Assembly (NCBI GenBank): GCA_041653995.1
Contig: JBAZEK010000001.1
Span: 1,030,613-1,094,612 of the forward strand
Length of the DNA stretch: 64,000 nucleotides
Direction: 5' to 3'
DNA from: Dehalococcoidia bacterium
GTDB lineage: Bacteria > Chloroflexota > Dehalococcoidia > GIF9 > UBA5629
The notes below the pieces were generated by a model that saw only the letters and a program-made list of their open reading frames with translations, searched no databases and was not told the origin of the DNA. The position numbers were made by a program, and so were the translations under genes. Numbering within the stretch: position 1 is the first letter of the stretch; the number at the start of each line of letters is the position of its first letter. Positions 4,358 through 42,084 of the stretch are shown piece by piece.

Positions 4358-4600
4358 TTGAAAGCTCGTATACAGAAATGGGGAAATAGTCTTGCTTTGC
4401 GTATCCCCAAGTCTTTTGCTTCAGAAGCAGGTTTGCAAAGAGAAACCTCTATTGAAATTTCACTATCAGAGGGAAAGCTCATAATAACACCATTGGCTAA
4501 TCCGAAATTTACTCTTAAACAGCTATTGGCAAAGGTTAATAAAGAGAATTTGCATCATGAGACGGATACTGGCCCCGCCGCAGGTAACGAAGCATGGTAA
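4358..4600 (+). CDS. mazE: AbrB/SpoVT-fold antitoxin MazE
   Basis: 80 aa with 'IQKWGNSLALRIPKSFA' looped-hinge-helix motif. TTG start after GAAGGAGG. Overlaps the toxin ORF. Confidence 0.75.
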   Translation: MKARIQKWGNSLALRIPKSFASEAGLQRETSIEISLSEGKLIITPLANPKFTLKQLLAKVNKENLHHETDTGPAAGNEAW

Positions 4601-4940
4601 GCGCTTCACCTATATTCCAAGATGCGGAGACATAGTGTGGATAACCTTAAATCCTCAAGCAGGACATGAACAATCAGGACGCCGCCCCGCCCTGGTAGTT
4701 TCACCTGTTAGTTATAATGATAAGACAGGGTTGGCCGTCCTTTGTCCCATCAGCAGCATTGTCAAGGGCTACCCTTTCGAAGTACTACTTCCAGAAGGAT
4801 CACCAGTGGCGGGGGCAATCTTATCTGACCAGGTAAAAAGCATGGATTGGCGTATTAGAAATGCAGTACTATTATGCACACTGCCTGCCGGAAATATCTC
4901 TGAGGTGCTCTTAAAACTGAACACCTTGTTATCACACTAA
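4557..4940 (+). CDS. mazF: MazF/PemK-family endoribonuclease toxin
   Basis: 'YIPRCGDIVWITLNPQAGHEQSGRRPALVVS...LAVLCPISS' is typical of MazF/PemK. Start is uncertain: ATG 4557 overlaps mazE by 44 nt. Confidence 0.8.
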   Translation: MRRILAPPQVTKHGKRFTYIPRCGDIVWITLNPQAGHEQSGRRPALVVSPVSYNDKTGLAVLCPISSIVKGYPFEVLLPEGSPVAGAILSDQVKSMDWRIRNAVLLCTLPAGNISEVLLKLNTLLSH

Positions 4941-5137
4941 ACAAATGCAATAAGGTCGTAGCCGGGTTGCGACTTGGACTACTTTACGATACGGCCTAAC
5001 AACTCTATACCGTTCGCAATATGAGTGTACATGCATAATAAAGTCAGCTTTAAATTCTGACACGCCGGCTTGACTGTGCCTTAATTTTCCCTTAATATTT
5101 CGCTCAACCATGACGTGAGGTTTAGGAGGATTGAAAT

Positions 5138-7201
5138 ATGGTGACAATGCTGAGGCTCTGCATAGCCCTGATTATCATTATCGCATTGGTCCTGCCAGGA
5201 ACAGGTTGTATTAAATTGGGCAAACTGCCGGGAAAACAGGCCGCGGAAAATAAGACTGCAGCATCAGGCGTCACGGCCGGGGGAACTGCCGGACAGTCAG
5301 GATCACAGGCGCCGGACACGGCGGGCAATCAGCCCGGTCAGGGCGGACAACCGGGCGCCCAACCCTCCGGCCAGGAGGCACAGGTCATTACCGGCGGTGG
5401 TGGAGTTGCCGTTGCCAACTGGATCGGCACCTGGCAATGCGGCAACTTTAAAATGTATCTGAACCAGGCAGGTGACCGGGTAACTGGGTGGTACGAGTAC
5501 GAAAACAGCGACATCGAAGGCACTGCTACCGGCAACACTCTCACCGGTACCTGGACTGTATCAGGTGTTAAATATGGTTTTCAGATTGTTCAGTCCTCTG
5601 ACGGCAAATCCTTTTCCGGCCGTTATAACCAGGGAACTTCAAGCAATCAAGGTGGATCATGGTCATGCACAAGGATAAGCACGGCCATGCCCACTGCAAA
5701 ATCATCAGGAGAAAATTCCCAGGTAATCACCCAGGGAGGAGGCGTGGCCGTTGCCAACTGGATCGGCACCTGGCAGTGCGGCAACAATAAAATGTACTTG
5801 GACCAATCAGGAAATCAGGTGACCGGGTGGTTCGATTCTGAAAATAGCGATATTGAGGGCTTTGCCACAGGCAATACACTTGTGGGTACCTGGACCAAGG
5901 GCGGAGTCAAATATGATTTCCAACTGGATCAGTCGTCTGACGGTAAATCATTTGCCGGACATTTTCGCCAGGGATCATCAGGCGCATGGACGGGAGAATG
6001 GTTCTGTATACGCACCAGCAGCGCCAGACCTCCGGCGAAACCAGCCACATCATATCCCCCCTCAGCCATACAGACTGCAAGCTGGACAGGTACATGGGAA
6101 TGCAATAATTATAAAATGTACCTGACCCAGACAGGCAGCAAGGTGACCGGCTGGACTGAACTGGATAATGGTGACATCGAAGGCTATGCAACCGGTAACA
6201 CAATTGTCGGCACCTGGACACTCTCCGGAATTGAATATGATATTCAGCTAAACCAGTCATCCGACGGCAAATCCTTTACAGGCCATTACCGTCAGGGTTC
6301 ATCAGGCAATTGGGCAGGAAGCTGGCCCTGCACTTTTATAACCAACGCACAGCCTCTGCCAAAGTCCGCAGTTCGATCTCAGCCTGCACCGACAGCACCC
6401 CCCACAAGCTGGACCGGCACATGGCAGTGCGGCCAGAAACAAATATGGCTACTTCAGACGGGCAGCCAGGTCATTGGCTGGTATGATGAACAGAGCGGTG
6501 ATATTCAGGGCTATGTCACAGGAAATACACTGGTAGGAACCTGGGCGGACGCCTCGGGTGAAAAAGATATTCAGCTGTCCATGTCCGCAGACGGGAATGC
6601 TTTTTCGGGTCATTACCGCACCAGCCCTTCAGCAAGCTGGATCAGCCACTTCTCCTGCACGAAAAAAAGCGCGGAATTACCCGCACCCAAAGTAACATTT
6701 GATATACAGCCCGTAAGTATTACCAGGGGGATGTCCGCGCAGTTATCCTGGAGCACTATACTGGCTACTTCTGTAGATATTAAACCGGACATAGGTCCCT
6801 GTGGCGCTAATGGCAAAATAAATGTCAAGCCCGACGCAGACATCTCATATACATTGAGCGCGAGCAACCCATTTGGCGGATCTAAAGTAACAGTTCCCCT
6901 AAAGGTAACATCGCCGAACTGGAGCGGGGAATGGGACTGCGGAAGCTTTGGGCATATGATACTCACCCAATCCGGCAACCAGGTTAACGGAATATATACA
7001 TACCAGGGCGGTAAAATCAGTGGCTATGTTAACGGGAATAAGCTTGCAGGAACGTGGTCTGAGGACCCGACCCATAAAGCTCCTGATGATGCGGGTGGTT
7101 GCGAATTCACCCAGTCAGCAGATGGTCTTTCCTTTACCGGTTATTATGACTACGGGTTTTCAGGCGCCGTGAGTCCCTGGAACGGGAAAAGGATTAGATA
7201 G
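5138..7201 (+). CDS. secreted lipoprotein with five ~105-aa Trp/Cys-containing repeats plus one Ig-like domain
   Basis: 687 aa with lipobox 'LPGTGC'. Repeats start W(I/T/S)G(T/E)W(Q/E/D)C and end (W/F)xC. AGGAGG upstream of the ATG. Confidence 0.8.
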   Translation: MVTMLRLCIALIIIIALVLPGTGCIKLGKLPGKQAAENKTAASGVTAGGTAGQSGSQAPDTAGNQPGQGGQPGAQPSGQEAQVITGGGGVAVANWIGTWQCGNFKMYLNQAGDRVTGWYEYENSDIEGTATGNTLTGTWTVSGVKYGFQIVQSSDGKSFSGRYNQGTSSNQGGSWSCTRISTAMPTAKSSGENSQVITQGGGVAVANWIGTWQCGNNKMYLDQSGNQVTGWFDSENSDIEGFATGNTLVGTWTKGGVKYDFQLDQSSDGKSFAGHFRQGSSGAWTGEWFCIRTSSARPPAKPATSYPPSAIQTASWTGTWECNNYKMYLTQTGSKVTGWTELDNGDIEGYATGNTIVGTWTLSGIEYDIQLNQSSDGKSFTGHYRQGSSGNWAGSWPCTFITNAQPLPKSAVRSQPAPTAPPTSWTGTWQCGQKQIWLLQTGSQVIGWYDEQSGDIQGYVTGNTLVGTWADASGEKDIQLSMSADGNAFSGHYRTSPSASWISHFSCTKKSAELPAPKVTFDIQPVSITRGMSAQLSWSTILATSVDIKPDIGPCGANGKINVKPDADISYTLSASNPFGGSKVTVPLKVTSPNWSGEWDCGSFGHMILTQSGNQVNGIYTYQGGKISGYVNGNKLAGTWSEDPTHKAPDDAGGCEFTQSADGLSFTGYYDYGFSGAVSPWNGKRIR

Positions 7202-7331
7202 GAGCATTATTGGTTTATGGTAAGTATTTTGGCTTCTATATTTAGTGCCAAATAACCAATATCCCATTGAATACCAGTCCATGCTAAAAAGAGATAAGTG
7301 GTGGTAGTATTACCTGGGGGCAGGTCATTTT

Positions 7332-7407
7332 TGGTGGACCTGGGGAGATTCGAACTCCCGACCTCCTGAATGCAAATCAGGCGCTCTCCCAATTGAGCTA
7401 CAGGCCC
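7332..7407 (-). tRNA. tRNA-Ala (anticodon UGC), CCA encoded
   Basis: Reverse complement GGGCCTGTAGCTCAATTGGGAGAGCGCCTGATTTGCATTCAGGAGGTCGGGAGTTCGAATCTCCCCAGGTCCACCA folds as a cloverleaf. G3:U70 is present; anticodon loop is TTTGCAT. Confidence 0.9.
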
Positions 7408-8050: not shown

Positions 8051-9532
8051 CTATATACGCCGCCTGACCCTGGCAATCCAGCGCCCGATTAAAACGATCA
8101 GTGTAATGACTACCGCCGCCAGAACATAAGGCCAGATCATCTCGTAAAGCGGTGTGGGCGGCGGTTGCCTGTATCCGGTTAAATTCACCTTGAGCCTGTT
8201 GTCCAGTCCGCCGGCTATATGGAAAGTAGTCGCAGTCCTCTTGCCTTCTTTCTCGACAACTATCTTATATGTGCCGTAGAAGCCGCGCATTCTGGCGATG
8301 CCGTCATCACCCGTGTACACATCGCCGCGCGACCACCATTTATCACGGATAAGAGTCAGCAGGCGGTTATAGGCCGGCTTTTTCGTCATATCCATCCGCA
8401 ACAGCCCGGCCGGCGCCCCCTGCCAGGCGCCACTATCCGACAGGTCCCACCAGGTTATGGCCTGCACGGACGGGTGGCTGAAGAGCAGTATGTAGAACTT
8501 CTCCGCGTAATCAGCCTGCTCGTTCTCGCCTGCAGGTGTGGACGGCCACTCGGACGGCTGCTCCTGGGACGATATGCCCGTCCTGGGCTTGCCGCTCAAC
8601 ACGGTCACTTCGGTGAAATGAATGGGGGCATCGAAATCCTTGAACCGCTCGCAGGTATCCCAGACTTGGTATAAAGGCCAGTTGCCGCGGTGCATATGCG
8701 ATTGTATGCCTATGGCATCGAATTTACCCTTCTGCCTGACGATCCCCTGGAGCAGATCGCTATAATCCTGGTCGGTGCGAAAATCGTTGATTATGAGCGT
8801 CGACGTCGGGCAGGCCGACCTGGCCCAGCCCAGCGCATCCGCGCAGACCGTCACAGGTGTACGCTGGGACATCCACTTGCCCACCCGGGTGCTCACCTGC
8901 GCGCTCATGGTCGGCTCATTCACAACATCCCAATAATCGATCGTTCCGCAGAATTCACCGGCAATCTCCTTGACCCGCTTCTCCTGCGCTTTTTGCATAT
9001 CATCGGGCCCGACGGGCGCCCAGCCGGGCACCGATTCAGCCCAGATCAGAGGATGTCCCTTTACCGTGATACCCCTTTTCTCACACCATTCCGCAACCAT
9101 CTCGAGCATAATGGCTGATGACTGGCCCTGCTGCTCTTCATAGCTATCCCAGTAAAAAGGCGCGGTGCCGTAATTGAAAAAAGCGCTCAATGCTTCAGCC
9201 CAGTCCTGGTTGACTGCGGTGGGCCCGTTCTCGGCCAGCGGCGCCAGGCCGGTTCCGAAAAGGAAGTCATGGCTCTGCTGCTCGTAGTATACGCGCGCGC
9301 CCCTCACAGGAACGTTGTTCTCGTCCAGCACCTGTATAACGCCATCCCCCTTGCGTATCTTCTCGATACGGTCGCCGGCGCTCTGCATAATGAACCACTC
9401 AAATATCCCATTGTAAGCCTGAATGATGACATTGCCCGCGCTGACCCCAGGCGCCTGGCAGGCCGCCGCAGGCACAAGCAAAGAGACAACCACAATGGTC
9501 AGCGTCGCTATATAAAAACATCTTCTGTTCAT
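8051..9532 (-). CDS. glycoside hydrolase family 10-like (xylanase-like), membrane anchored
   Basis: 'YWDVVNEP' (acid/base Glu) and 'IHFTEVTV' (nucleophile Glu) motifs. N-terminal signal/anchor from the internal Met 'MNRRCFYIATLTIVVV'. C-terminal TM helix. Confidence 0.55.
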   Translation of the reverse strand: MNRRCFYIATLTIVVVSLLVPAAACQAPGVSAGNVIIQAYNGIFEWFIMQSAGDRIEKIRKGDGVIQVLDENNVPVRGARVYYEQQSHDFLFGTGLAPLAENGPTAVNQDWAEALSAFFNYGTAPFYWDSYEEQQGQSSAIMLEMVAEWCEKRGITVKGHPLIWAESVPGWAPVGPDDMQKAQEKRVKEIAGEFCGTIDYWDVVNEPTMSAQVSTRVGKWMSQRTPVTVCADALGWARSACPTSTLIINDFRTDQDYSDLLQGIVRQKGKFDAIGIQSHMHRGNWPLYQVWDTCERFKDFDAPIHFTEVTVLSGKPRTGISSQEQPSEWPSTPAGENEQADYAEKFYILLFSHPSVQAITWWDLSDSGAWQGAPAGLLRMDMTKKPAYNRLLTLIRDKWWSRGDVYTGDDGIARMRGFYGTYKIVVEKEGKRTATTFHIAGGLDNRLKVNLTGYRQPPPTPLYEMIWPYVLAAVVITLIVLIGRWIARVRRRI

Positions 9533-9637
9533 TTCCAACCCTGTCAACGAAAATACTTTATCTATTTTAGCACAGCATCCAATCTGTCTATACCGGCCTG
9601 CAGCCGCGAATGCCATTAACCCGACCGATAGTATTTT

Positions 9638-30966: not shown

Positions 30967-31005
30967 CAATCATTATCTTTGGCTTTGCCGCTCCCTTTGA
31001 CGCTC

Positions 31006-31029
31006 GCCCGCCCGGTTGCGGGCCGTTTT
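31006..31029 (+). terminator. possible intrinsic terminator
   Basis: gcccgc-ccggtt-gcgggc followed by cgTTTTg. Confidence 0.35.
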
Positions 31030-31038
31030 GATCTGGGT

Positions 31039-31275
31039 TTACATGATGTAGGGCGTGCGGCAGCATTTAAGTGCAACACGATGAGAACATATGGTGGGCG
31101 ATACTGGATTTGAACCAGTGACCCCCTGTGTGTAAGACAGGTAAAAACCTTTAATTGACTGGAGCTTATTGATAATCTCTAGGGAAGCCTTACGTTGTCC
31201 TGAAAGAATCATGCTCAAATAGCTTTTACTGATACCTAATTCTTTGGCTAATTGACTCTGTGTTAACTTTTTCAT
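31039..31275 (-). CDS. HTH protein = putative N-terminal fragment of the split integrase (Int-N)
   Basis: ATG 31275 abuts the xis-like stop. HTH 'LTQSQLAKELGISKSYLSMILSG'. Residues 49-61 are encoded by the att/tRNA copy and the last 17 aa by host flank. Confidence 0.6.
   Translation of the reverse strand: MKKLTQSQLAKELGISKSYLSMILSGQRKASLEIINKLQSIKGFYLSYTQGVTGSNPVSPTICSHRVALKCCRTPYIM
31092..31142. repeat. att site (distal copy): 3' 51 nt of tRNA-Val(UAC) without the 5' half
   Basis: 'tggtgggcgatactggatttgaaccagtgaccccctgtgtgtaagacaggt' is identical to 43144-43194. Confidence 0.95.
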
Positions 31276-31530
31276 TTATTTCACCCGCCTTTTTATATCC
31301 TTTAAGCCTGCGTTTCCAATTATCGGTAAATATTGGTACGACTTCTTCTGTCTTCCTTTTGCACTAAAGTTCCCCTGTGGTTTTCTCACAAAATGACAGT
31401 CTACCTCATCAATAAGCCATCTCCGTCCAATGTAGAGTGCATTAATCCGTCCCTCTGACAAAAGCTTACGAACCCGTCTCTCAGATATACCAAGCCTTTC
31501 TGCTGCCTGTGGAACCGTAAGTAGTTTCAT
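31276..31530 (-). CDS. excisionase-family DNA-binding protein (Xis-like)
   Basis: 'LLTVPQAAERLGISERRVRKLLSEGRINALYIGRRWLI' is the typical excisionase/MerR-type HTH_17 pattern. Confidence 0.7.
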   Translation of the reverse strand: MKLLTVPQAAERLGISERRVRKLLSEGRINALYIGRRWLIDEVDCHFVRKPQGNFSAKGRQKKSYQYLPIIGNAGLKDIKRRVK

Positions 31531-31706
31531 TCAATTACCTTCTATCATTTTAATATTATACCGTTATCGGAATAATGTCAAGTATAATTACAAGCTAAAA
31601 TATCTTTTCTTTTTGCCGCATTTTTCCATAATACTCCGCAGAATTTTTTCAAATCGTATTTAAATTAAGTTTTAAAAGTTCAAGAATGAGGGTTTATAAT
31701 ATGCAT

Positions 31707-31817
31707 ATAAACTGGAAGCATATGGAAGGAAGCACGATAGAAAGTTAGAACGTAAGCAAGCGAGTAAGCAAGAAGGAAAGCAGGCGAGCAGGGAAGCTAT
31801 GTTGCTTTCCTTTTTTT
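31707..31817 (+). ncRNA. candidate ~110-nt purine-rich small RNA or leader ending in an intrinsic terminator
   Basis: TATAAT at 31695-31700. Five GGA motifs. 8-bp stem ggaaagca/tgctttcc (31775-82 / 31803-10) followed by T7. Confidence 0.3.
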
Positions 31818-31841
31818 AATTTTTTGATTCGGAGGTACGAA

Positions 31842-32057
31842 ATGACTGAAAACAAGGTCAAGGAAATTAGATTGAGCAAATGCATGAATCAGAGAGAACT
31901 GGCAGAGAGAGCTCATATCTGTCAAACAGCTATTTCAGACATTGAAAGGGGGGTAAGACTACCATGGAAAGCAGCGTCTGAAAAGCTTGCTATTGCATTG
32001 GGTGTCACAATCGAGGAATTATTCCCAAACAATCTTAGGGGAGGTAAAAATTGCTAA
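31842..32057 (+). CDS. Cro/CI-type XRE HTH regulator
   Basis: ATG 31842 after GGAGG. 'MNQRELAERAHICQTAISDIERGVRLP'. Divergent from xis-int. Confidence 0.75.
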   Translation: MTENKVKEIRLSKCMNQRELAERAHICQTAISDIERGVRLPWKAASEKLAIALGVTIEELFPNNLRGGKNC

Positions 32058-32398
32058 ACAAAAATAGAACGTCTTTAAAGCTGGGAAACAAGAAAGTAGG
32101 CTACTTTGAAGGTGATAAATTCATCAAACCCGTAATCGGCTCAAAGCATCTGCTGAAATTTCCTTACCAAGCTTGGGCAATTGATGCCAAAGTATTTGAC
32201 GATGAAATTAAACCTAACGCCAATTATTTTATTGTAAGAGATAGGGAGTCGGGGCTTGAATATAGTTGTACGGTAAAGGACTTCGACAATTTAAAGCGAA
32301 CCATTAACAGAGGGTATGGTAAGCAGTACAGTCTATCTCTAAAACATTGGAAAATAGCAGCTATGGAAGACGCTGAAGCTTCCAGTAACGCAACATAG
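32051..32398 (+). CDS. hypothetical protein
   Basis: 115-aa ORF with TTG start after GGAGG, overlapping the cro-like stop by 7 nt. No recognisable motifs. Confidence 0.5.
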   Translation: MLNKNRTSLKLGNKKVGYFEGDKFIKPVIGSKHLLKFPYQAWAIDAKVFDDEIKPNANYFIVRDRESGLEYSCTVKDFDNLKRTINRGYGKQYSLSLKHWKIAAMEDAEASSNAT

Positions 32399-32579
32399 AG
32401 TAGTGCAGCACCCGTTTTAGTAGTTGGAGGTGCTGTGTAAAAATGGTATTAGACAGAAGGAAAAGGCTGATGGAGGAGGGTATGACTCGCCATGATATTT
32501 CAGGAGCCTACTTATTTAATCAATTCAAGTGAGTTGTAATAGATGGTCATACCTATTCGATGGTCTTAAGGAGGAAAAT

Positions 32580-33026
32580 ATGATTCAGGGCATAGAAAAT
32601 TATATAAATTTAACAGATACCAAGAATGAATGGGCAAAATTTCTAAATGGCTTTGAATGGCATTGGTTCTTTACTCTCACATTTGATAAAAAGGTAAGTG
32701 ATGACTTGGCATACAAGCAATTCTTTAGGTGGAAGAATTGGATAAAGAGTTCAGTAGGACACAGAATTTTCTATCTAATTATTCCTGAGCGTCCCAAGTA
32801 TAAGGGAGATAATACTCATATTCATGGATTTCTTAATGGTGTTGAAAATGAGAAACCCTACATATGGAGAAGGAAATGGGAGGCAATGGCAGGCTTTTCT
32901 CGGATTCAACCCTATGATAGTTCAAGGGGTGCAAGCTATTATCTAGCGGATAAAATTGTATTTAAAGAAGAGGATATTTATCATAGCAAAGACCTAAATA
33001 TGATAAAGATAAATACACTCAATTAA
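32580..33026 (+). CDS. HUH-superfamily rolling-circle replication initiator (Rep)-like protein
   Basis: ATG 32580 after AAGGAGG. Motif I 'FFTLTF', motif II 'THIHGFL' (HUH), motif III 'YYLADK'. Confidence 0.55.
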   Translation: MIQGIENYINLTDTKNEWAKFLNGFEWHWFFTLTFDKKVSDDLAYKQFFRWKNWIKSSVGHRIFYLIIPERPKYKGDNTHIHGFLNGVENEKPYIWRRKWEAMAGFSRIQPYDSSRGASYYLADKIVFKEEDIYHSKDLNMIKINTLN

Positions 33027-33117
33027 ATCCATTATATATATCAATATGATTATTACTACAAACATCAATATTTATTTCTTTTACTTTTACTTTTCCTTAT
33101 GCCCCTTTTTTATTTTT

Positions 33118-33172
33118 GCCCCAAATATGAATTAAATATAAATATCTACAATTAATTGCATAAAATTGGGGC
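33118..33172. other. hairpin (7-bp GC-rich stem, 41-nt AT-rich loop): candidate replication origin
   Basis: gccccaa (33118-24) pairs with ttggggc (33166-72). The loop holds 'taaatataaatatctacaa' (33133-51), which recurs at 34198-34216. Confidence 0.35.
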
Positions 33173-33231
33173 ATAGGGAAAAAATCACATATAAAATTCA
33201 AATAGAAAGTCAGGAGGAATCAGTAAGTAAA

Positions 33232-33858
33232 ATGAGTACAATAATTTCAAAACCTACGACAATTCAAATTAGCATGCTTGGGACACATGCCTTTTGTGAA
33301 TATAGGATATATCTTGAGCTTGTTATGGGTTTTAAAGCACGAGGTACACCAGAAATGCTTGAAGGCACAAAAGCACACTCAAGGATAAATACGATGGCTT
33401 TCTTAACGAGAGATTCAAATATTAGCATTGAGGATGCGTTGCTCCAAGCAGAGTCAGACGGAAGAGAAATAACAAAAAGGAACGTACGGGTAACAGGTAA
33501 GATACTACGTGGGAATATCGATGAAATTCACATTGGGCCAAAAGAAATTACGATTATAGATGATAAAAAATGGGCAGAGCATTATCCATCATATAAAAAT
33601 CAAGTCTTTGGCTATTGCCTTGCGTTTAAAGAACAATACAACCCAAAGCAGCCGATATACGGTGCCATAAAGAATTATCAGTCTGGAAAGGAAGTCTGGA
33701 AAAAACAATTTTCAGTTTTGGAAGAGGAATATATAAACGGCATTGTTCAAAGAATACTGGGGATAATTCGTGAGGATATCACTCCAAAACCCATTGGTGT
33801 TAGAGAAGTATGCTGGCAATGTGGATTTAAAAATTACTGCAATGTAAGGACACGATAG
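33232..33858 (+). CDS. Cas4-like PD-(D/E)XK nuclease with 4-Cys cluster
   Basis: N-terminal Cys 'HAFCEYRIYLE', 'IDEIH', 'IIDDKK', 'NQVFGY' (QxxxY), C-terminal 'CWQCGFKNYC' (C-x2-C-x5-C). AGGAGG upstream of ATG 33232. Confidence 0.6.
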   Translation: MSTIISKPTTIQISMLGTHAFCEYRIYLELVMGFKARGTPEMLEGTKAHSRINTMAFLTRDSNISIEDALLQAESDGREITKRNVRVTGKILRGNIDEIHIGPKEITIIDDKKWAEHYPSYKNQVFGYCLAFKEQYNPKQPIYGAIKNYQSGKEVWKKQFSVLEEEYINGIVQRILGIIREDITPKPIGVREVCWQCGFKNYCNVRTR

Positions 33859-33895
33859 CAAAATGGTGGAAAAAGGAAAAAGAAGAAACTAACTA

Positions 33896-34159
33896 CTATA
33901 CTGCCTTGAAACCCACAATAAAGTAATTTGATTTATCAAATATAAGTCTTATCTTGTGTTCTGAATTATCCTTGCCGGCCAGGGCAATTAAGAATGATAG
34001 CTTCTTTGGATTAGTAACTGTCTTAGAAATTGGACGATGGACAATAAAACCCTCAAGTTCAATCTTCACATATCTACAGCCAGTCTTCGGATATGGCAAA
34101 TCCTTCTCTTCCACAATATCTATATATTTGCATATGGCTGAATTTGTCCTTCTTGGCAT
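33896..34159 (-). CDS. hypothetical protein
   Basis: 87-aa ORF on the opposite strand, with purine-rich SD (AAGGGAAGAAAGGAA) upstream of the ATG. Confidence 0.4.
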   Translation of the reverse strand: MPRRTNSAICKYIDIVEEKDLPYPKTGCRYVKIELEGFIVHRPISKTVTNPKKLSFLIALAGKDNSEHKIRLIFDKSNYFIVGFKAV

Positions 34160-34503
34160 ATTTATTTCCTTTCTTCCCTTTTCCGCTAAATTTAAACTAA
34201 ATATAAATATCTACAAATTATTATATTAAATCCACAACCAAATTTGAATATGAATGCCACAGATAAATGGCGGAAAAGAAAAAGAGTCTTAGAGATATTA
34301 TTATTTTGTATTATTTTCTTTAATAGTCAGATAGCAAGTGTGGCTAAGGGCAATTTTACCTTTAAAAATATTGAATCTGGTTGTCATTTGTCTAGTGCTT
34401 TAAAAATAGAAAACCTTCACGTGTGAGAAATGCCAGTAGCACGTGTATTAGAAGCGGCATTTTAAATAAAATCTTAGCCCAAAGTCATAGCAAATATAGA
34501 TTG

Positions 34504-34532
34504 TTGCATGCGTCCTTTTAATACGATAGAAT
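34504..34532 (+). promoter_or_regulatory. promoter TTGCAT-17 nt-TAGAAT (copy A)
   Basis: Both hexamers and the spacing are conserved in the duplicated unit at 40413-40441. Confidence 0.5.
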
Positions 34533-34558
34533 ACGGTCAATGTAGTGAGGCTGGGGAG

Positions 34559-36502
34559 ATGAAATATTTACTTGCTTGTTTCATAGCACTATTCGTTATA
34601 TCAGCCTGTGCATCTCAAGTCCATGTTGGTGACCAAGCTCCAAACTTCACACTGACAGATATAAATGGTAAACGTATTAGTCTGCAAGATTTTCGTGGCA
34701 AGCAGGTTGTTCTTTATCTTTGGTTTTTATATTGTCCTGAATGTACAGAAGACCTTGCTGAGATTCAAGAGTTGAATAATAATAGTGACGAAAGAGTCAT
34801 TAAGTTCCTAACCATTAACCCAGAAAATTCATCAAAAGACGTTGCGGATTTTTTCACTAAAAATGGATATAGTTTCCCAGTTTTGTTTGATTTAGATGGA
34901 AGTATTTACAAGCAATATAATTTACGACCTCGGTCTGCACCCTACACAATAATTATTGCTCCTGATGGAAAGATTAACAATATTACAGTGGGGAATCTTC
35001 ATTATCAAGGTGGTTTAAAACGGTTAATTGGAGATAACGTAACATCCTTCAGTCCAAGTGCACAAACTCAAAAGACTCCAATAATTATCGTACCCAGTTT
35101 ACAATCTCATGGTGTCGATGAACTTGCTTATGTATCTAGCGAAACGAACACGAACTCTATATATGTCGTGAATGCAAACGGGGAATATATTGCTAACTCA
35201 TCTGGAAAAATGGATGCATTATACCATGTTAGTTGGTCGCCAAACGGAGATAAGATTATTTTTGAAGTGGTTAAAGATATCAATATAGACCAGAGAAATA
35301 TGACCCTTATTTCTTCGTCTGATATTTATTCTCTTGATATTAAAGACCATGAAGAGCGTAGACTTACTTCAAATTATCCGTATAGCAATTGTTCTCCCAC
35401 ATGGATTGAAGACGATAAAATCGTATTTTATTCAACAAGGGGAAGTTCGTATGGCAGTTTTTTACAAAATATATACATCATGAACGCAGACGGAAGTAAT
35501 CAGATAAATTTAACTAATTGTGCAGAGAATGTACCTATGGTATTAGAACCAATATTATCGCCTGACCACTTGTCTGCAGCATATATTACGGGTAAGTTAT
35601 TCGATGAAGATATATATGTGATAAACCTAGTGAATGGAAATAAATTTGAAATAGGCCATAATCCAACATTTGCACCCTGGACTTGGTGGTCTCCAAACAG
35701 TAAACAGATAGCGTATATATCTGCCTCTCTAAACGGGGGGCCTGAATCATTTTATCTCTACGATGTCGAAAAACAGAAACCGATAAAATACTATGATAGC
35801 CCTCAATCTTATTCTATTATGGAAATAGCATGGTCGCCAGACAGTAACAAAGTCGCTATTTTTGAAAAACCGCAGAGCTTGTATGTTTTAGATTGTCTGA
35901 GTTCCAAGTTTACAAAACTTGATGGGATATGTGACTGGGTAGTAGAGATGAAATGGATACCTAATAACCAACAAATAGCCATTATTGGTGACAGGTTTAC
36001 AAACAGAAACTTGTATGTAATTGATATTGGTGAGCAGAGTAAGCATAAAATCAATCCAGAGGGAACGGCAGTCGAGTCGTATCGATGGTCAACTGATAAT
36101 ACAAGAATCATTTATTGCTTAGATGATGGATATCTTTACACAACTTTCCTACCCAACTTAAATACCATAAAACTAATGCAACTTAATAAAAATACGATAA
36201 AAGGGTTAGCTTTGTCACCAGACGGTTTATTAATCGCTGTTGCTCTGAGTGACGATACTCTAACTGTAATTTCATTAAACAATAACAAGGTGTGCTTGTT
36301 AACTAATGATTATTACAATATTGGAGCAATTTCTTGGTCGCAAAACAGTAACATACTTGCATTTGAATACGGAACTTTATGGGATAGTCCGTTTGTATGC
36401 AGTAACATTCAAATCATCAATTTCGAAAACGAGGAACAGTTCATTAAATTAGATAAACCAATCTCAGGACGCTCTCCAATTTGGGCGAGAAAGGAAAAAT
36501 AA
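34559..36502 (+). CDS. lipoprotein: TlpA/ResA-like thioredoxin domain (CPEC) fused to TolB-like beta-propeller
   Basis: Signal 'MKYLLACFIALFVISAC'. 'VGDQAPNFTLTDINGKRISLQDFRGKQVVLYLWFLYCPEC'. Then >=8 PD40-like blades ('SWSPNGDKIIFE', 'WWSPNSKQIAYIS', 'AWSPDSNKVAIF', 'ALSPDGLLIAVA'). Confidence 0.75.
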   Translation: MKYLLACFIALFVISACASQVHVGDQAPNFTLTDINGKRISLQDFRGKQVVLYLWFLYCPECTEDLAEIQELNNNSDERVIKFLTINPENSSKDVADFFTKNGYSFPVLFDLDGSIYKQYNLRPRSAPYTIIIAPDGKINNITVGNLHYQGGLKRLIGDNVTSFSPSAQTQKTPIIIVPSLQSHGVDELAYVSSETNTNSIYVVNANGEYIANSSGKMDALYHVSWSPNGDKIIFEVVKDINIDQRNMTLISSSDIYSLDIKDHEERRLTSNYPYSNCSPTWIEDDKIVFYSTRGSSYGSFLQNIYIMNADGSNQINLTNCAENVPMVLEPILSPDHLSAAYITGKLFDEDIYVINLVNGNKFEIGHNPTFAPWTWWSPNSKQIAYISASLNGGPESFYLYDVEKQKPIKYYDSPQSYSIMEIAWSPDSNKVAIFEKPQSLYVLDCLSSKFTKLDGICDWVVEMKWIPNNQQIAIIGDRFTNRNLYVIDIGEQSKHKINPEGTAVESYRWSTDNTRIIYCLDDGYLYTTFLPNLNTIKLMQLNKNTIKGLALSPDGLLIAVALSDDTLTVISLNNNKVCLLTNDYYNIGAISWSQNSNILAFEYGTLWDSPFVCSNIQIINFENEEQFIKLDKPISGRSPIWARKEK

Positions 36503-36527
36503 GAAATTTCAAAAATGGAGACTGAAT

Positions 36528-36824
36528 ATGACTGGCGAATTGGGAAATTTTGTTATCGTCATGGGATTACCCTGTTTAGGAGCGCTGTTAATAGCTTTTT
36601 GTTCATTACCAACCGATAAATGGACAATAAAACACACTTTTATGTTGGTGGGAACTTCACTAATTTTTATTAGCTTTATTTTGCAAGCATATCAGATTAT
36701 TGATAAATACCCTGATAAAAATGAATATATATTTGGATGGTGGATTGTCGGTTTAGCTACCGTTATCATGGCTATAATAGGGCAAATTATTAGAATCAGA
36801 TACGGTAAAAGTTGGTTCCAATAG
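36528..36824 (+). CDS. small membrane protein (3 TM)
   Basis: 98-aa hydrophobic ORF, 26 nt after the upstream stop. Confidence 0.5.
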   Translation: MTGELGNFVIVMGLPCLGALLIAFCSLPTDKWTIKHTFMLVGTSLIFISFILQAYQIIDKYPDKNEYIFGWWIVGLATVIMAIIGQIIRIRYGKSWFQ

Positions 36825-36920
36825 GATAATAAAATAGTGGGAAAGGAAAGAGAAGGAAATTTAATTAGCTATCTATATTTAAGATAAGAGTGACTTATAG
36901 AACTTCATTGAGGTTGGGAG

Positions 36921-37451
36921 ATGCAACAACAGTATCAATGCCCTAATTGTAGGTATCCAGTTGCTTATGGGAATAATTTCTGTGGACATTGTAGACAACA
37001 ACTAATCTGGCAACAATTAATGCCACCTTCACCACCAGTACACCATCAGCAAACACCACAAGGCATTATTGGGAAATCACACGAGCAAAACACTTCTGGA
37101 CAAGGTGGTCAATCAATAATACCCGATGAAAAGCGTATTAAACTTCCAAAACTCAATATTCGTTTCGACTTTGAGTTGTTTCAAGCAATTGAGGACAATG
37201 ACCGTAAACTGGCTGAACAGCTCAAAGCAAAATATGGGGATGATGTTTATAATTCCAATTTTTATAACCTGCTTAGTATCGAAGACGCTAACTCAGTAGA
37301 CTCACTTCATCTTAAACTAGTATCAGTTGAAAAAATGAATTTCAATGATATTTTATGCGAAAGTATCAAAATAGAGACTGAAAAAGTACGCAAAAGGATA
37401 GAGGAGCTTGAGAATATAAAAAATTTACGCAACGGGATTGAGGAAGTGTAA
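36921..37451 (+). CDS. zinc-ribbon protein with Pro-rich linker and helical C-terminus
   Basis: 'MQQQYQCPNCRYPVAYGNNFCGHCRQQLIW'. Head is homologous to the host ORFs at 57880(-) and 58107(+). No TM helix. Confidence 0.65.
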   Translation: MQQQYQCPNCRYPVAYGNNFCGHCRQQLIWQQLMPPSPPVHHQQTPQGIIGKSHEQNTSGQGGQSIIPDEKRIKLPKLNIRFDFELFQAIEDNDRKLAEQLKAKYGDDVYNSNFYNLLSIEDANSVDSLHLKLVSVEKMNFNDILCESIKIETEKVRKRIEELENIKNLRNGIEEV

Positions 37452-37511
37452 GGAACTGACTAAACCCCTGAAACTGGCAGCTCGAGTAAGAAAAATGGCG
37501 GGAAAGAAAAT

Positions 37512-39368
37512 TTGATTTATATGTTATGGGATGATACGTATCGTAAAGATGCAGCGGAGTATGAAATCTATCTGCGTATGCATCATAAAGAAAAAAACGA
37601 TTACGAGAAGCTTTTATCTAATCTTGAACGTGAGTGGTCAGAAAAATCAGTTAAAGAAGAAAACTACATATCGCTTAAAAAGGAATACACAGCGAAACTA
37701 CAGGAAACAAAGAAGTACATTTCAAAGCTGAAATTCCAGATTACAGCACTCATTAAAAAATGTAATAAAGACATAGATAAAATCGATAGCCAAATTGAAC
37801 AAATTAAATTGCGGCACAAAGTTGGTGAATATTCAGAGGAGAAACTCAAAGAACTATTATCACCATCTGAAACAGAAAGAAGGCAATTTGAATCCTTAAT
37901 AATCGAACTGAAACGCATACATGGCTTGAAATATATACCTAAACCAACTACCGATGATGTTGTATCAGAAACAGAACCGAGTCAGCCTAGAAGGTCTCCT
38001 ATCCCAACGTCATCTACTTCTATTTCAACAGCTGAAGAGCAAGCCCCCGAAATATCAGCACCAATGAGTTTTGAAGAACCGCCTCCTATTTTGGTACCTG
38101 CTGTATTTAAAAAGTCTTCACCTGTAAGAGTAAAGAAGAGTCTGTGGATTATGGCTTCGATTACTATGTTTGTAATATTAATTCTCTGTTTTGTTATTTG
38201 GAATATAGAAGTGCATAAAAAGGTAATCCCTCAGATTGGAGACCAAGCTCCAAACTTCTCTCTCCCAGATATGAATGGTAAAACGGTTAACCTTCAGGAC
38301 TTTCACGGAAAGGGTGTTGTTCTTTACCTTTGGGACACATCATGTCCTTACTGCAAAAATGACCTTAGCTGGATAAATGAATTAAATGGCTGCACCTATG
38401 ACGAAGCAATAATATTTTTAACTATTAATATCTCAGATTCACGTGGAACAGCTATTAAATATTTTGAGGAAAATGGATATAGTATTCCCGTTTTAAATGA
38501 TATGCGTGGGACGGTTATTAAGCAGTATGTAAAGTACACCTTAGGCCATACGTATCCAGATACTATTCTTATTGGTTCAAATGGCCAGATTCGTAATGTA
38601 AAAGTCGGGCCCTTCCAAAGCAAGACTGAATTAAAAACATTTATAGAATCAGGTTTAACCCCCCGTTGGGATAATACTCCTCCACAAATTTATGATATTA
38701 ATCTTTCTAAGGCCTCTATTTTGAGTTGGAAAACGGATGAGGAAACACATAGTAATATACAAGGGTTTCGTAATAGTGTCGGAGGTGCTGGAGTCACTCT
38801 TGGTGAAAATTGGACAAGATATCATAGCGTAAATGAAACAGTTTGCACTAATGGCTACTATGACCAAATTCAAATCAACTCGTATGACCGCTGCGGTAAT
38901 TCTGCTTCAAAAGTTTTTACACTGCCCAACTGCATAAATTTAGGTTGTAGAGCTCCTGATTTCACAGCAACTTCAACTAATAATCAGGATATAACGCTGT
39001 CCGCAGTACCTAGCAAAATGACTCTACTTCACTTCTGGCTACTCGGATGTGGTGCATGTGAAAAGGAACTTCCATTAATCCAAAAACTATATTATGAGCG
39101 TCCTAGAGAAGAACTTGAGATATTGGCTGTGAATGTTAGAGGTGACATATACAGCATAAATGACTTCGTTACTGCAAATGGTTATAGATTAATTATTTTA
39201 CTAGATACAGAAGGCATAATAGATGCCGCCTATCATAATCCAAGGTTCCCCACAACCTTTTTATTGGATTGCAATAAGGTAATTATTAACAAGCATGACG
39301 GTGCCTTTCAAAATTATGAAGAAATCGTTGATTTTGTAGGTCAGTATCCAAAACTTCCTGGTAAATAG
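37512..39368 (+). CDS. coiled-coil / TM / thioredoxin (CPYC) / Fn3-like / thioredoxin (CGAC) protein
   Basis: 618 aa. TM 'LWIMASITMFVILILCFVIW'. 'IGDQAPNFSLPDMNGKTVNLQDFHGKGVVLYLWDTSCPYC', 'ILSWKTDEETHS', 'CRAPDFTATS...LLHFWLLGCGAC'. Start uncertain (TTG 37512, ATG 37521, or frameshifted ATG 37495). Confidence 0.7.
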   Translation: MIYMLWDDTYRKDAAEYEIYLRMHHKEKNDYEKLLSNLEREWSEKSVKEENYISLKKEYTAKLQETKKYISKLKFQITALIKKCNKDIDKIDSQIEQIKLRHKVGEYSEEKLKELLSPSETERRQFESLIIELKRIHGLKYIPKPTTDDVVSETEPSQPRRSPIPTSSTSISTAEEQAPEISAPMSFEEPPPILVPAVFKKSSPVRVKKSLWIMASITMFVILILCFVIWNIEVHKKVIPQIGDQAPNFSLPDMNGKTVNLQDFHGKGVVLYLWDTSCPYCKNDLSWINELNGCTYDEAIIFLTINISDSRGTAIKYFEENGYSIPVLNDMRGTVIKQYVKYTLGHTYPDTILIGSNGQIRNVKVGPFQSKTELKTFIESGLTPRWDNTPPQIYDINLSKASILSWKTDEETHSNIQGFRNSVGGAGVTLGENWTRYHSVNETVCTNGYYDQIQINSYDRCGNSASKVFTLPNCINLGCRAPDFTATSTNNQDITLSAVPSKMTLLHFWLLGCGACEKELPLIQKLYYERPREELEILAVNVRGDIYSINDFVTANGYRLIILLDTEGIIDAAYHNPRFPTTFLLDCNKVIINKHDGAFQNYEEIVDFVGQYPKLPGK

Positions 39369-39441
39369 ATAATTTCTTGATATTAAGAAATCGAGGTGTA
39401 CTGGTCTGAACCCCTGAAACTGGACAGCTTGAGTAAGAAAA

Positions 39442-39951
39442 ATGGCGGAAAAAGAAATGCAACAGGAGGAGCATCCCCTAAATATGGGGAAGCTACTTGT
39501 GAATTTCCAATCACTTGAGATAGCTCTCCGTCTATTTCTTTATAATGATGAAATTGCCTCTAGAGTTTCATCTCCTCAGGCGGTAAACCTAAATGCTATG
39601 AATGCGGGGGATATAGTAGCTGAAAATGCGTTCACAAACTATGATAGTCTAAGTCAACTCATTGATAAATATAATAACCATCCCAACATCATATCGACAG
39701 GTCTAACCATTGATAAGACTTTAGTGGACATACGTGATGCAATAGCTCATGGAAGAGTCGCTGGAGTCACTCCTTTGCTTGTGCCTCCTTTAAAACTAAT
39801 GAAGTTTGATAAACCAAAGAACAAAAGTGTGAAAGTAACATTTAGCGTTTTATTGACAAGGGAATGGTTCATTCTAGAGATGGCTAAGGTTCAAGATGCA
39901 GTTTTTAAAGTCTTTCAAGCTATCCAAATAATACAGAGTGCTAAGACATAA
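39442..39951 (+). CDS. hypothetical protein with RxxxxH (HEPN-like) motif
   Basis: 169 aa, predicted helical. 'VDIRDAIAHGRV' matches the Rx4-6H HEPN signature. Motif-level evidence only. Confidence 0.45.
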   Translation: MAEKEMQQEEHPLNMGKLLVNFQSLEIALRLFLYNDEIASRVSSPQAVNLNAMNAGDIVAENAFTNYDSLSQLIDKYNNHPNIISTGLTIDKTLVDIRDAIAHGRVAGVTPLLVPPLKLMKFDKPKNKSVKVTFSVLLTREWFILEMAKVQDAVFKVFQAIQIIQSAKT

Positions 39952-40412
39952 GTGGTGCCCTCTGAAATCGCTCTGAGGGGCTGAAATCAGGGTGTTGCAT
40001 ATTGAACATGACGGATTCCACCTGTCATTACTATTCCAGCTTAATTAGAGCCTTTAAAGTATTAAACAGTAAAGGTAATAACTCTACTTCCTTTCCCTTA
40101 AGCCCCTTTATTATTTCTTCGCCTAAGTTTCCGTTCAAGTGAATTATGTCGCTTTTAAGACCAACAAACGCTGGTACACCATAAACACGTTTACGTTCAA
40201 GCCAATTATGTCGTTTTGCATATATTATTTCCAGCTTAAATTAACTACAGAAAAATGGGGCAAAAAGAGAAAAAGGGGAATTATATATCAATTTATTGTC
40301 AATAATCTTTGAAATACTATTACTTCATCTGAGAGAGATGCCAGCAGCTAAGTGTAACGGCATTGAATTTTAAATAACTTCTCAGCCCAAAGTGGTAACG
40401 CATATAGGTCTA

Positions 40413-40441
40413 TTGCATAAGTATTGTTCATATAATAGAAT
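40413..40441 (+). promoter_or_regulatory. promoter TTGCAT-17 nt-TAGAAT (copy B)
   Basis: Same hexamers and spacing as 34504-34532. Followed by an identical 5' UTR and signal-peptide coding sequence. Confidence 0.5.
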
Positions 40442-40467
40442 ACGGTCAATGTAGTGAGGCTGGGGAG

Positions 40468-41880: not shown

Positions 41881-41907
41881 AAGAAAATCAAAAGGGAGGT
41901 AAAGAAG

Positions 41908-42084
41908 ATGGTAGCAAATAAGAAGAAGTATTATGCAGGGGAATCAGCTAAAGTCTCTGGCAAATACAACGAATGCAGATTGGGCACAGGCAAAACAGGA
42001 GTAACAGCAAATGTCAAGAAGGGGGATACACTCCCACCACATAAAATAGGAGCTCATTGGGAGTTATCAAGAAAATCTAAATAA
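41908..42084 (+). CDS. small YjzC-like protein (58 aa)
   Basis: Not in the track (<60 aa). AAGGGAGG lies 8 nt upstream. 'GESAKVSGKYNE...VKKGDTLPPHKIGAHWEL' resembles the YjzC family pattern (from memory). Confidence 0.5.
   Translation: MVANKKKYYAGESAKVSGKYNECRLGTGKTGVTANVKKGDTLPPHKIGAHWELSRKSK

Follow-up and report, generated by a model that had tools for sequence, protein, structure and literature searches.

The calycin superfamily (avidin/streptavidin, lipocalins and FABPs; Pfam clan CL0116) is characterized by an eight-stranded antiparallel up-and-down beta-barrel. Its signature is a first-strand Trp (G-x-W) latched by an Arg or Lys of the last strand (PMC2954199). Surface lipoproteins with lipocalin-like or eight-stranded barrels include the handle-barrel lobes of TbpB/LbpB/HpuA, Tp0751 and NHBA, which come from diderm pathogens, combine one or two barrels with handle domains and have known host ligands. 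MORN repeats are tandem units of ~23 aa (YxGxWxxGxxxGxG) that form an open beta-hairpin array. Cap15, the CBASS cyclic-dinucleotide receptor (PDB 7n34), senses cytoplasmic nucleotides. It has two N-terminal TM helices, faces the cytoplasm and is encoded within CBASS operons (PMC10419184).

We compared these systems with a gene for a 687-aa protein in a 64,000-nt stretch of a Dehalococcoidia genome (the window). Like the pathogen proteins, its product is a predicted surface lipoprotein, but it sets five homologous barrels in series, adds an Ig domain and belongs to an environmental Chloroflexota lineage. Unlike Cap15, its barrels are predicted to be exported, tandem and lipid-anchored. Relative to calycins, the modelled barrel is smaller (about 90 aa), lacks the C-terminal helix and occurs in tandem arrays of 2-7 copies with lineage-specific disulfides, and it gives a significant sequence match to none of the curated calycin families. 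The short 3-10 helix that caps a calycin barrel ahead of strand 1 was not detected: the DSSP string of the repeat model has no helix there, although it reports only H/E and a 3-10 turn would not show.

We first consider the gene itself, whose features are collected in Table 1. A ribosome-binding site and a promoter-like site, dN/dS values of 0.32-0.46 against orthologues and an identical protein on several other public contigs establish that it is a real gene of the Dehalococcoidia bacterium. Two minus-strand ORFs within it (5907-6260 and 6613-6978) were taken as shadow ORFs. Both flanks of the block shared with contigs L005 and L010 are unrelated to the flanks on those contigs (blastn), and the L005 flank proteins have no match inside the window (tblastn). 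The genes beside it are mazEF, tRNA-Ala and a nitroreductase; the putative terminator adjoins the tRNA-Ala, which lies on the opposite strand. Comparison of neighborhoods showed that gene order is kept only among closely related strains and never between subclades. No operon or partner gene conserved across subclades was found, and no operon points to a function. The sole exception to the variable neighborhoods is a downstream Ig-lipoprotein gene in a single subclade.

Table 1. Features of the gene and its surroundings (positions counted from the first letter of the window; residues are those of the 687-aa protein)
Feature	Position	Strand	Basis
Block common to related Dehalococcoidia contigs L005 and L010	5063..7225	+	94-96% nt identity, blastn
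Promoter-like site TTGACT, 17 nt, TAATAT	5070..5098	+	Consensus scan; within conserved 75 bp upstream
Shine-Dalgarno AGGAGG, 8 nt 5' of ATG	5124..5129	+	Sequence read
CDS, 687 aa plus stop	5138..7201	+	ORF list
Predicted signal peptide and lipobox, aa 1-24, ending LVLPGTG before C24	5138..5209	+	Sequence; conservation across clade
Low-complexity Gly/Gln/Ala/Pro/Ser tether, aa 25-87	5210..5398	+	Sequence
Barrel repeat 1, short-loop type, C101/C177, aa 88-185	5399..5692	+	HMM
29-nt stretch identical to 5747-5775	5408..5436	+	Sequence
Barrel repeat 2, short-loop type, C214/C290, aa 201-298	5738..6031	+	HMM; copy modelled
29-nt stretch identical to 5408-5436	5747..5775	+	Sequence
Barrel repeat 3, short-loop type, C322/C398, aa 309-406	6062..6355	+	HMM
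Barrel repeat 4, short-loop type, C431/C507, aa 418-515	6389..6682	+	HMM
Ig/PKD-like beta-sandwich domain, aa 520-588	6695..6901	+	Profile, BLASTP, AF2, Foldseek
Barrel repeat 5, long-loop 'head' type (WSEDPTHKAPDDAG), C601 only, aa 591-687	6908..7198	+	HMM
Possible intrinsic terminator, 5-bp stem, 4-nt loop, T-run	7312..7335	+	Consensus scan only, weak

The protein begins with a signal peptide and lipobox, continues with a tether and four Cys-bracketed repeats, and closes with an Ig-like domain and repeat 5, which is of another subtype. A preliminary description made from the sequence had proposed five copies of a ~105-aa Trp/Cys unit with a Cys near both ends, separated by short Pro/Ala linkers. 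The number of copies was recovered in three ways: the W.G(T/E)W.C motif begins at aa 95, 208, 316, 425 and 595, the HMM delimits five repeats (the last at aa 588-687), and a profile built from 409 copies, all from outside the window clade and hence non-circular, matches all five at 69-84 bits. The length differs from that described, with a period of 108-113 aa and a folded core of ~85-98 aa. The linkers are indeed short (10-28 aa) and rich in Pro, Ala, Ser and Thr. Paired terminal Cys were found in repeats 1-4 and not in repeat 5, where the first Cys (C601) is kept and Gly replaces the second. A further Cys of repeat 5, C655, is non-homologous to the bracket Cys and is missing in orthologues 93-96% identical.

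The N-terminus reads MVTMLRLCIALIIIIALVLPGTG, followed by C24, and its hydrophobic segment (aa 1-30) is the only signal or lipobox segment in the protein. A positively charged n-region, a hydrophobic h-region and an invariant Cys at residue 24, inside the range of ~15-35 aa from the start expected of an Lgt/LspA substrate, are all present, with a lipobox that is atypical at two positions (Gly at -3, Pro at -4). The signal peptide and the invariant Cys are retained in all of the ~22 full-length members of the clade, together with the surrounding pattern '..(T/A/G)GC(I/V)K(L/I)'; the I-K-L-G right after C24 is likewise conserved among them. This conservation supports the proposal of a lipoprotein, in which export through Sec would be followed by lipidation of Cys24 and loss of the signal peptide. 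The lipidated Cys24 would tether the protein to the cytoplasmic membrane, on its outer leaflet. The tether that follows (~60 aa) differs among orthologues in length and composition, and would form a disordered Gly/Gln/Pro spacer between the lipid anchor and the first barrel.

We next asked what the repeat is. The AF2 model of repeat 2 (pLDDT 92.6) has eight strands in a meander that close into a barrel, and its top Foldseek matches were FABPs, Cap15, PvdP, avidin and RsfG. The model thus has the eight-stranded antiparallel up-and-down topology of calycins, and the latch residues of that superfamily are present at sequence level: among 471 copies, G10 is found in 93%, W12 in 76% and R/K93 in 75%, with all three together in 264 of 383 ungapped copies and in four of the five window repeats. 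The best PDB sequence match of the profile was an FABP variant (E 6e-4, over about 57 residues), none of the PDB sequences matching better, and the best match to Pfam Avidin (PF01382) had E 0.0056 in one of 48 copies. No gathering score of the Avidin, Lipocalin or FABP family HMMs was reached by the whole protein or the 48 repeat copies. The statement that the Trp/Cys repeat is unrecognized consequently stands for the sequence family and falls for the fold: on the predicted model the barrel fold is a known one (calycin, avidin/lipocalin-like), and the sequence family is new.

That the repeat belongs to an already named family overlooked in the preliminary description (MORN, choline-binding repeats or the Cap15 CBASS effector barrel) is very improbable, and largely refuted by the searches and the model together. 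Assignments to MORN, choline-binding repeat, glucan-binding repeat, DUF499, Cap15 and avidin were all dropped, every sequence match falling under the curated thresholds. Scans of the whole protein (E<=10) and of the 48 copies (E<=1) brought up no Pfam MORN family, leaving a weak PDB sequence match (E 0.009) as the only trace of MORN, and the modelled closed barrel is neither an open MORN sheet nor a choline-binding solenoid. The Cap15 arrangement of two TM helices and a C-terminal barrel in a CD-NTase operon was not seen: a PADLOC scan gave no Cap15 match, the gene neighbors show no CBASS or other defense context, and the protein has its single N-terminal segment and is predicted to be exported.

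The repeat occurs well beyond this gene: at E<=1e-3 its profile retrieved 5,522 protein clusters (50% identity). They span Chloroflexota, Bacillota, Acidobacteriota and Pseudomonadota, a taxonomy that comes from a few named matches, the narrower alignment A3 retrieving only the Cys-type clade. A word-indexed profile search gave only 23 short proteins without names, and cluster look-ups yielded no informative names. Copies always lie behind a signal peptide, lipobox or TM helix, placing them outside the cytoplasm. They are accompanied by PKD, Ig/ASH, Cu_amine_oxidN1, LamG, cohesin and WSC domains, and occur in architectures that include ECF sigma-TM-5 repeats, FecR fusions and the N-terminus of a Loktanella MscS-family channel. 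Among ~65 family proteins scanned, no curated model of Pfam-A 2025, NCBIfam 20.0 or PADLOC covered the repeat, and a confident match to a well-characterized family was not obtained at sequence level. Judged by these searches, the repeat is a widespread sequence family contained in none of the libraries searched (Pfam, NCBIfam, PADLOC, PDB sequences).

Within this family the paired Cys are a local feature. Cys at columns 14 and 91 occur together in 33 copies, with the second alone in only two (Fisher P 3e-33), and the pair is specific to a rare Dehalococcoidia/Chloroflexi clade. In other lineages Cys are instead paired at columns 6 and 70, both being present in 53 copies (P 8e-59). The columns 14+91 and 12+93 both total 105, placing the Cys pair and the Trp-Arg/Lys pair in one antiparallel register of strands 1 and 8. 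From this co-occurrence and shared register we infer a disulfide between strand 1 and strand 8 in repeats 1-4, in agreement with the intradomain bond suggested before. It would staple the barrel seam beside the latch between the Trp of strand 1 and the Arg/Lys of strand 8. Repeat 5 has an unpaired Cys at column 14 (C601), which the stalk-and-head arrangement discussed below leaves unexplained.

The domain between repeats 4 and 5 had been described as one copy of an Ig-like domain massively repeated at 56-61 kb. A profile of the 14 copies there recovers its sequence at E 1e-26, and BLASTP gives 46% identity to one copy, confirming the relationship. The AF2 model (pLDDT 97.6) has eight strands, and its top Foldseek matches were an archaeal S-layer PKD domain, Dscam Ig, ICAM and titin (TM 0.6-0.75, E about 3e-3), as expected of a two-sheet Ig/PKD sandwich of seven to nine strands. 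The paralogous repeats at 56-61 kb match Pfam I-set weakly; the single inserted copy has no Pfam match of its own. It resembles bacterial Ig-like/PKD repeat surface proteins in its seven- or eight-strand beta-sandwich, but its sub-family (L.W......V.I.P.IG) appears lineage-typical. Its placement varies within the family, from an N-terminal fusion (P0005/10/11) to an insertion (window) or the next gene. Many Ig-repeat surface proteins are encoded in the neighboring genome region.

Repeats 1 and 2 share the 29-nt identical run that had been attributed to recent duplication or gene conversion. The run is non-random: only 0.32% of codon-column shuffles gave one that long (P about 0.003). Recent tandem duplication is not supported: nt identity between the two repeats is 70% overall and 53% for third codon positions, and repeat 1 of orthologue P0002 is nearer to each of them than they are to one another. 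A short gene-conversion tract between them remains plausible. Apart from this similarity, TRF and direct-repeat scans revealed no tandem array in the DNA.

We regard it as rather probable that the protein is a surface lipoprotein in which a lipid-anchored stalk of stapled calycin-like barrels and an Ig domain carries a distal head barrel as binding module. Repeat 5, with its conserved long loop and no second Cys, suggests such a stapled stalk presenting a distal head. Two loop classes occur in the family, one of 8 aa and one of 14 aa with a conserved motif. A long-loop repeat stands last in 14 of the 16 clade proteins, usually after a series of short-loop ones (S...S-L), and the C-terminal repeat is the best scorer against the non-clade profile in seven of eight. 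The turns at the barrel end holding the N- and C-termini are conserved (Q23, G25, G45, D69), whereas the loops at the opposite end differ in length and sequence. Barrels 1-4 and the Ig domain would form a semi-rigid stalk resistant to protease and force. The last barrel would be of a different, more canonical subtype, its 14-residue loop (WSE.P.Y..P.DAG type) lying at the variable-loop end, and may bind a ligand or partner by way of the loops at its open end and a mouth lined with aromatic residues. We infer this division of labor, and any binding function, from the arrangement of the repeats. Beyond the clade, most proteins with several repeats carry a single loop class throughout, short or long, so a split into stalk and head is no general rule of the family. 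The head loop of the window protein has His in place of the family Tyr. No ligand or partner is evident, and gene neighborhoods differ between subclades.

The same observations can be read without a head. All barrels and the Ig domain may instead be inert spacer beads of a purely structural surface or envelope protein, for example within the proteinaceous envelope or as a spacer under an S-layer, a possible reading to which we give limited credence. Nearly all conserved positions are Gly kinks or inward-facing aromatics, as would suit a spacer. So would the ligand-free de novo barrels among the best structural matches, the frequent tandem arrays of 2-7 copies with Pro-rich linkers, the nearby Ig-repeat proteins and the variable gene partners. 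A spacer does not readily account for the 14-residue loop motif, which is kept across phyla in the long-loop subtype, for the domain's sensor position in ECF sigma, FecR and MscS proteins, or for the consistently terminal long-loop repeat within the clade. The conserved Gly and inward aromatics resemble a purely structural core, and a Trp-filled barrel may leave no pocket.

Pocket size also bears on whether every barrel is an avidin/lipocalin/FABP-like carrier, making the protein a multivalent surface scavenger of a hydrophobic nutrient or cofactor. The calycin-like fold with its Trp/Arg latch, the weak FABP and Avidin matches and an inward face rich in aromatics towards the variable-loop end (Y32, W52, W77, Y79, W89) are consistent with a carrier. 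We nevertheless consider this improbable: a barrel of ~90 residues into which five or six Trp/Tyr point, with Gly in mid-strand, is probably filled, and no curated calycin family reaches threshold. Position 54 is E/Q in 66% of non-clade copies but V/K/L/D in the internal repeats of the window protein, and no transporter or metabolic gene linked to the gene was found.

A bolder extension of the stalk-and-head reading, which we put forward tentatively and think rather doubtful, is that the long-loop barrel is a widespread extracytoplasmic sensor or receptor module of ECF-sigma/anti-sigma systems, MscS-type channels and adhesins, carried in Dehalococcoidia on a lipid-anchored stalk of stapled sister barrels, where it would take up one particular ligand from the environment, such as a cofactor, a glycan or a component of the envelope. 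If true, describing this module would establish a domain family that is new, comprises >5,000 protein clusters and has a testable function. Defining the repeat family would in any case give an annotation to thousands of surface and sensor proteins now labelled 'hypothetical'. With the putative pairs 14/91 and 6/70, one barrel would have acquired disulfides independently in two ways, which would be of use in beta-barrel design and may serve as a marker of oxidizing compartments in poorly known phyla. The Dehalococcoidia envelope is poorly characterized, and a lineage-specific class of lipid-anchored surface proteins could be a target for metaproteomics.

The window gene encodes a protein in which an HMM delimited five repeats, 36–68% identical pairwise. 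A profile built from 409 copies, none of them from the clade of Dehalococcoidia/Chloroflexi proteins with Cys at repeat alignment columns 14 and 91, and independent of the window, matched all five at 69–84 bits; since it recognizes every copy, the repeat is real. The preliminary description, which had read the protein as a lipoprotein built from five ~105-aa Trp/Cys units, was essentially right. The copy number was confirmed by both models, and the unit size was revised to a period of 108–113 aa with a core of ~85–98 aa. The expected Cys near both ends of each unit is present in repeats 1–4 and not in repeat 5, which keeps the first and has Gly at the second position; C655 of this repeat is absent even from orthologues at 93–96% identity. 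All full-length clade proteins retain a basic n-region, a hydrophobic segment of ~15 residues and the lipobox ‘(T/A/G)-G-C-(I/V)-K-(L/I)’, followed after the Cys by a Gly/Gln/Pro/Ala/Ser segment of ~60 residues that varies among orthologues. The window protein is exported, lipobox-bearing and multi-domain, and quite likely a lipoprotein, as proposed. In DeepCast Chloroflexi MAGs, the gene of a 932–936-aa paralogue that has four repeats behind an ordinary signal peptide is followed in tandem by that of a 518–519-aa lipoprotein; the gene call behind database entry P0006 lacks the N-terminus of the latter.

Using A2, an alignment of 48 repeat copies from 18 homologues, AlphaFold2 modelled repeat 2 as an eight-stranded up-and-down meander (pLDDT 92.6, pTM 0.82). 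Foldseek matched this model to FABPs, Cap15, PvdP, avidin and the anti-sigma factor RsfG, all at E≥0.017, which points to a minimal calycin-type barrel, a known fold, with no close relative among solved structures; the TbpB/LbpB/HpuA barrels, the PknI sensor domain and others were also among the barrels set beside it. The best PDB sequence matches of the A2 profile were a truncated intestinal FABP (E 6e-4) and then MORN1 (0.009). Calycins are marked by a first-strand Trp latched by a last-strand Arg/Lys (PMC2954199). The barrel repeat appears to have the same latch: across 471 aligned copies G10 is conserved in 93%, W12 in 76% and R/K93 in 75%, and the complete trio is found in 264 of the 383 copies without gaps and in every window repeat but one.

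The preliminary description did not recognise the repeat as a named family; the libraries searched gave it no family either, and Foldseek gave fold-level matches only. Pfam-A matched no part of the window protein even at E≤10, gave nothing consistent for the 48 copies and never covered the repeat region in 46 other family proteins; NCBIfam and PADLOC hold no model for it, and source records give it no informative name. Its taxonomic spread, for which a profile search had been suggested, proved wide: an exhaustive search of 1.84 billion representatives returned 5,522 proteins at E≤1e-3, of which 2,219 reached E≤1e-10, with named sources in Chloroflexota, Bacillota, Acidobacteriota and Pseudomonadota and, among the best 150 matches, usually 2–3 and up to 7 copies per protein. 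The sequence family is large, and the libraries searched do not appear to contain it. Family-wide, the barrel domain is extracytoplasmic, always preceded by a signal peptide, lipobox or TM helix, and its partners include PKD, Ig/ASH, Cu_amine_oxidN1 (‘stalk’), LamG, cohesin, WSC and CFI-box-CTERM domains. We consider it very likely that the repeat defines an uncurated, calycin-like extracytoplasmic barrel family. The C-terminal tail ‘KIGPLSCFIATAAYGSE..’ is common to the homologue P0012 and the orthologue’s neighbour on related contig L005; in P0012 it is CFI-box-CTERM by NCBIfam (NF041770, E 2e-26).

The Cys columns co-vary as pairs. Over the 471 copies, columns 14 (strand 1) and 91 (strand 8) carry both Cys in 33, only the first in 23 and only the second in 2 (Fisher P 3e-33). 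An alternative pair consists of column 6, which precedes strand 1, and column 70, in the strand 6–7 turn, where ‘DC’ replaces ‘DG’; it co-occurs in 53 copies of other lineages (P 8e-59) and is almost never mixed with 14/91. Judged from the alignment, the pairs are putatively two independent disulfide solutions on one fold, and an intradomain disulfide in 14/91-type repeats is probable. Because 14+91 and 12+93 each sum to 105, we infer that the Cys pair and the Trp/Arg latch would share one antiparallel register along the barrel-closing seam. The 14/91 type is rare: a search of 185,579 species genomes located it at 5 loci, in 4 Dehalococcoidia/Chloroflexi MAGs, and one of 241 million metagenome records at 19 loci. 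Within the clade, internal repeats all carry both Cys and C-terminal repeats, including window repeat 5, only the first, with Gly at column 91. This column-14 Cys is apparently unpaired and conserved; a buried thiol, an intermolecular disulfide and ligand chemistry are possible roles.

The Ig-like domain that the preliminary description placed between repeats 4 and 5, and likened to the repeats at 56–61 kb, was upheld on both counts. A profile made from the repeats of the three genes there (7, 5 and 2 copies) matched it at E 1e-26, and it is 46% identical to one copy. AlphaFold2 predicts an eight-strand sandwich (pLDDT 97.6); its best Foldseek matches were PKD, Ig, ICAM and titin domains (TM 0.6–0.75, E about 3e-3), and the paralogous repeats matched Pfam I-set. 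At the level of fold, ‘Ig-like’ is the right name. Barrel and sandwich both stand as predicted folds. Two of the three genes are divergently transcribed, and their products each have a zinc ribbon at the N-terminus, a single TM segment and either 5 or 7 Ig-like repeats; the third encodes a lipoprotein with 2 copies. In the subclade of homologue P0005, a second lipoprotein gene lies 40–55 bp downstream on the same strand, and its product shares the ‘GC-I-K-I-G’ start of the barrel protein and has, besides a low-complexity tether, two domains of the insert’s Ig-like family; the two genes probably form an operon. Three kinds of link thus connect this Ig-like domain with the barrel repeat: N-terminal fusion, internal insertion and gene adjacency.

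Positions of the features discussed (window nucleotides unless a protein or another locus is named)
Feature	Position	Strand	Details
mazE (PF04014), mazF/pemK (PF02452)	4358–4940		Directly 5′ of window gene
Block shared with related contigs	5063–7225		L005 5315–7486; L010 641–2815
Promoter-like element	5070–5098		TTGACT-17-TAATAT
Ribosome-binding site	8 nt 5′ of ATG		AGGAGG
Window gene	5138–7201	+	687 aa
29-nt identity, repeats 1 and 2	5408–5436 = 5747–5775		
Repeat 1	aa 88–185		W.G(T/E)W.C from 95; Cys 101/177
Repeat 2	aa 201–298		From 208; Cys 214/290
Repeat 3	aa 309–406		From 316; Cys 322/398
Repeat 4	aa 418–515		From 425; Cys 431/507
Ig-like insert	aa 520–588		Cys 555
Repeat 5	aa 588–687		From 595; Cys 601, 655
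tRNA-Ala(tgc)	7332–7407	−	Downstream of window gene
GH10 glycoside hydrolase	8051–9616	−	
Low-GC island	31000–43500		
Cas4/PD-(D/E)XK-like ORF	33166–33858		
AhpC/TSA-redoxin fusion	34508–36502		Beta-propeller
AhpC/TSA-redoxin fusion	37512–39368		
AhpC/TSA-redoxin fusion	40468–41880		fn3
Phage-type integrase	42317–43081	−	
tRNAs Val, Arg, Leu, Val	43144–43470	−	
Gene of the insert’s Ig-like family	56282–57880	−	
Gene of the insert’s Ig-like family	58107–60068	+	
Gene of the insert’s Ig-like family	60380–61465	−	
DeepCast tandem paralogues	L001 4767–7565, 7659–9218		Also L007, L020, L021
P0005-subclade downstream lipoprotein	L002 4872–5894		Homologues L028, L029, L031–L033
Orthologue’s neighbour with shared tail	L005 7714–9171		
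P0012 tail	aa 924–989		
Homologue P0029			ECF sigma, TM helix, five repeats
Homologue P0041			FecR, four repeats
Loktanella salsilacus MscS-family channel	aa 24–117		N-terminal barrel, E 7e-21
Acetoanaerobium stalk-domain protein			C-terminal barrel

The window gene stands alone in its neighbourhood, between a toxin–antitoxin pair with overlapping reading frames and a tRNA, beyond which lie a nitroreductase and then the GH10 enzyme. Gene and promoter recur at 94–96% nt identity on two related Dehalococcoidia contigs with unrelated flanks; homology ends at 5063 and 7223–7225, and none of the L005 flank genes is present within the 64 kb window. This is therefore a single-gene block with its own promoter, found at different loci in close relatives, which suggests a cassette relocated or transferred to its place between mazEF and tRNA-Ala. 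Gene neighbourhoods are kept within subclades only. With a dN/dS of 0.32–0.46 the gene is under purifying selection that is relaxed, as often seen in surface proteins. The 29-nt identity between repeats 1 and 2 was confirmed, and the recent duplication read from it was not: the two repeats share 70% of their DNA and 53% of third positions, and each is 76–77% identical in amino acids to repeat 1 of the orthologue P0002, versus 68% to one another, so the duplication is not recent. Codon-column shuffles produce a perfect run of this length in just 0.32% of cases; a short conversion tract, the part of the earlier reading that is still compatible, or local nucleotide constraint could account for it.

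The GH10 protein has a signal/TM segment at its N-terminus and, at its C-terminus, a hydrophobic stretch with basic residues after it; it may be another envelope-anchored protein of the region. Elsewhere in the window, the low-GC island (GC 0.35 versus about 0.54), bordered by the integrase and four tRNAs, resembles an integrated element whose cargo serves extracytoplasmic thiol-redox chemistry; it holds the Cas4/PD-(D/E)XK-like ORF and the three AhpC/TSA-redoxin fusions, which are large.

The strand 5–6 loop falls into two classes across the family. Of 423 non-clade copies, 179 have the short loop, 8 aa in length, and 102 the long one, 14 aa in length; 72 of these 102 show the conserved motif W-S-E-(A/S)-P-(S/T)-Y-x-x-P-x-D-A-G. 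Window repeats 1–4 are short-loop and repeat 5 is long-loop (WSEDPTHKAPDDAG). In the clade the two subtypes tend to follow one order: the long type comes last in 14 of 16 clade proteins, mostly as S…S-L (S, short; L, long), and in 7 of 8 the C-terminal repeat best matches the non-clade profile; most non-clade proteins are homotypic in loop class. The S…S-L arrangement, putatively Cys-stapled and lipid-anchored, is a lineage-specific variant. If the barrel ends are assigned by the meander topology, conservation falls on the turns at the N/C-terminal end (Q23-x-G25, G45-N46, D69-G70), and loops 1, 3, 5 and 7 at the opposite end differ in both length and sequence. Calycins bind ligand at their variable open end, and the barrel repeat has the same pattern of conserved and variable ends.

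Dehalococcoidia are monoderm, and some lack peptidoglycan. The lipid anchor of the window protein would sit in the cytoplasmic membrane, followed by a flexible tether and a stalk of four disulfide-stapled barrels and the Ig domain, and the distal canonical barrel would use its long loop and aromatic mouth to bind a partner. We hold this binding model tentatively, at slightly short of an even chance; the chief alternative is an envelope protein with a purely structural role, in which the same barrels and Ig domain would have no binding head. The finding is of an unsurprising kind and of moderate value for annotation and for the envelope biology of Chloroflexota.
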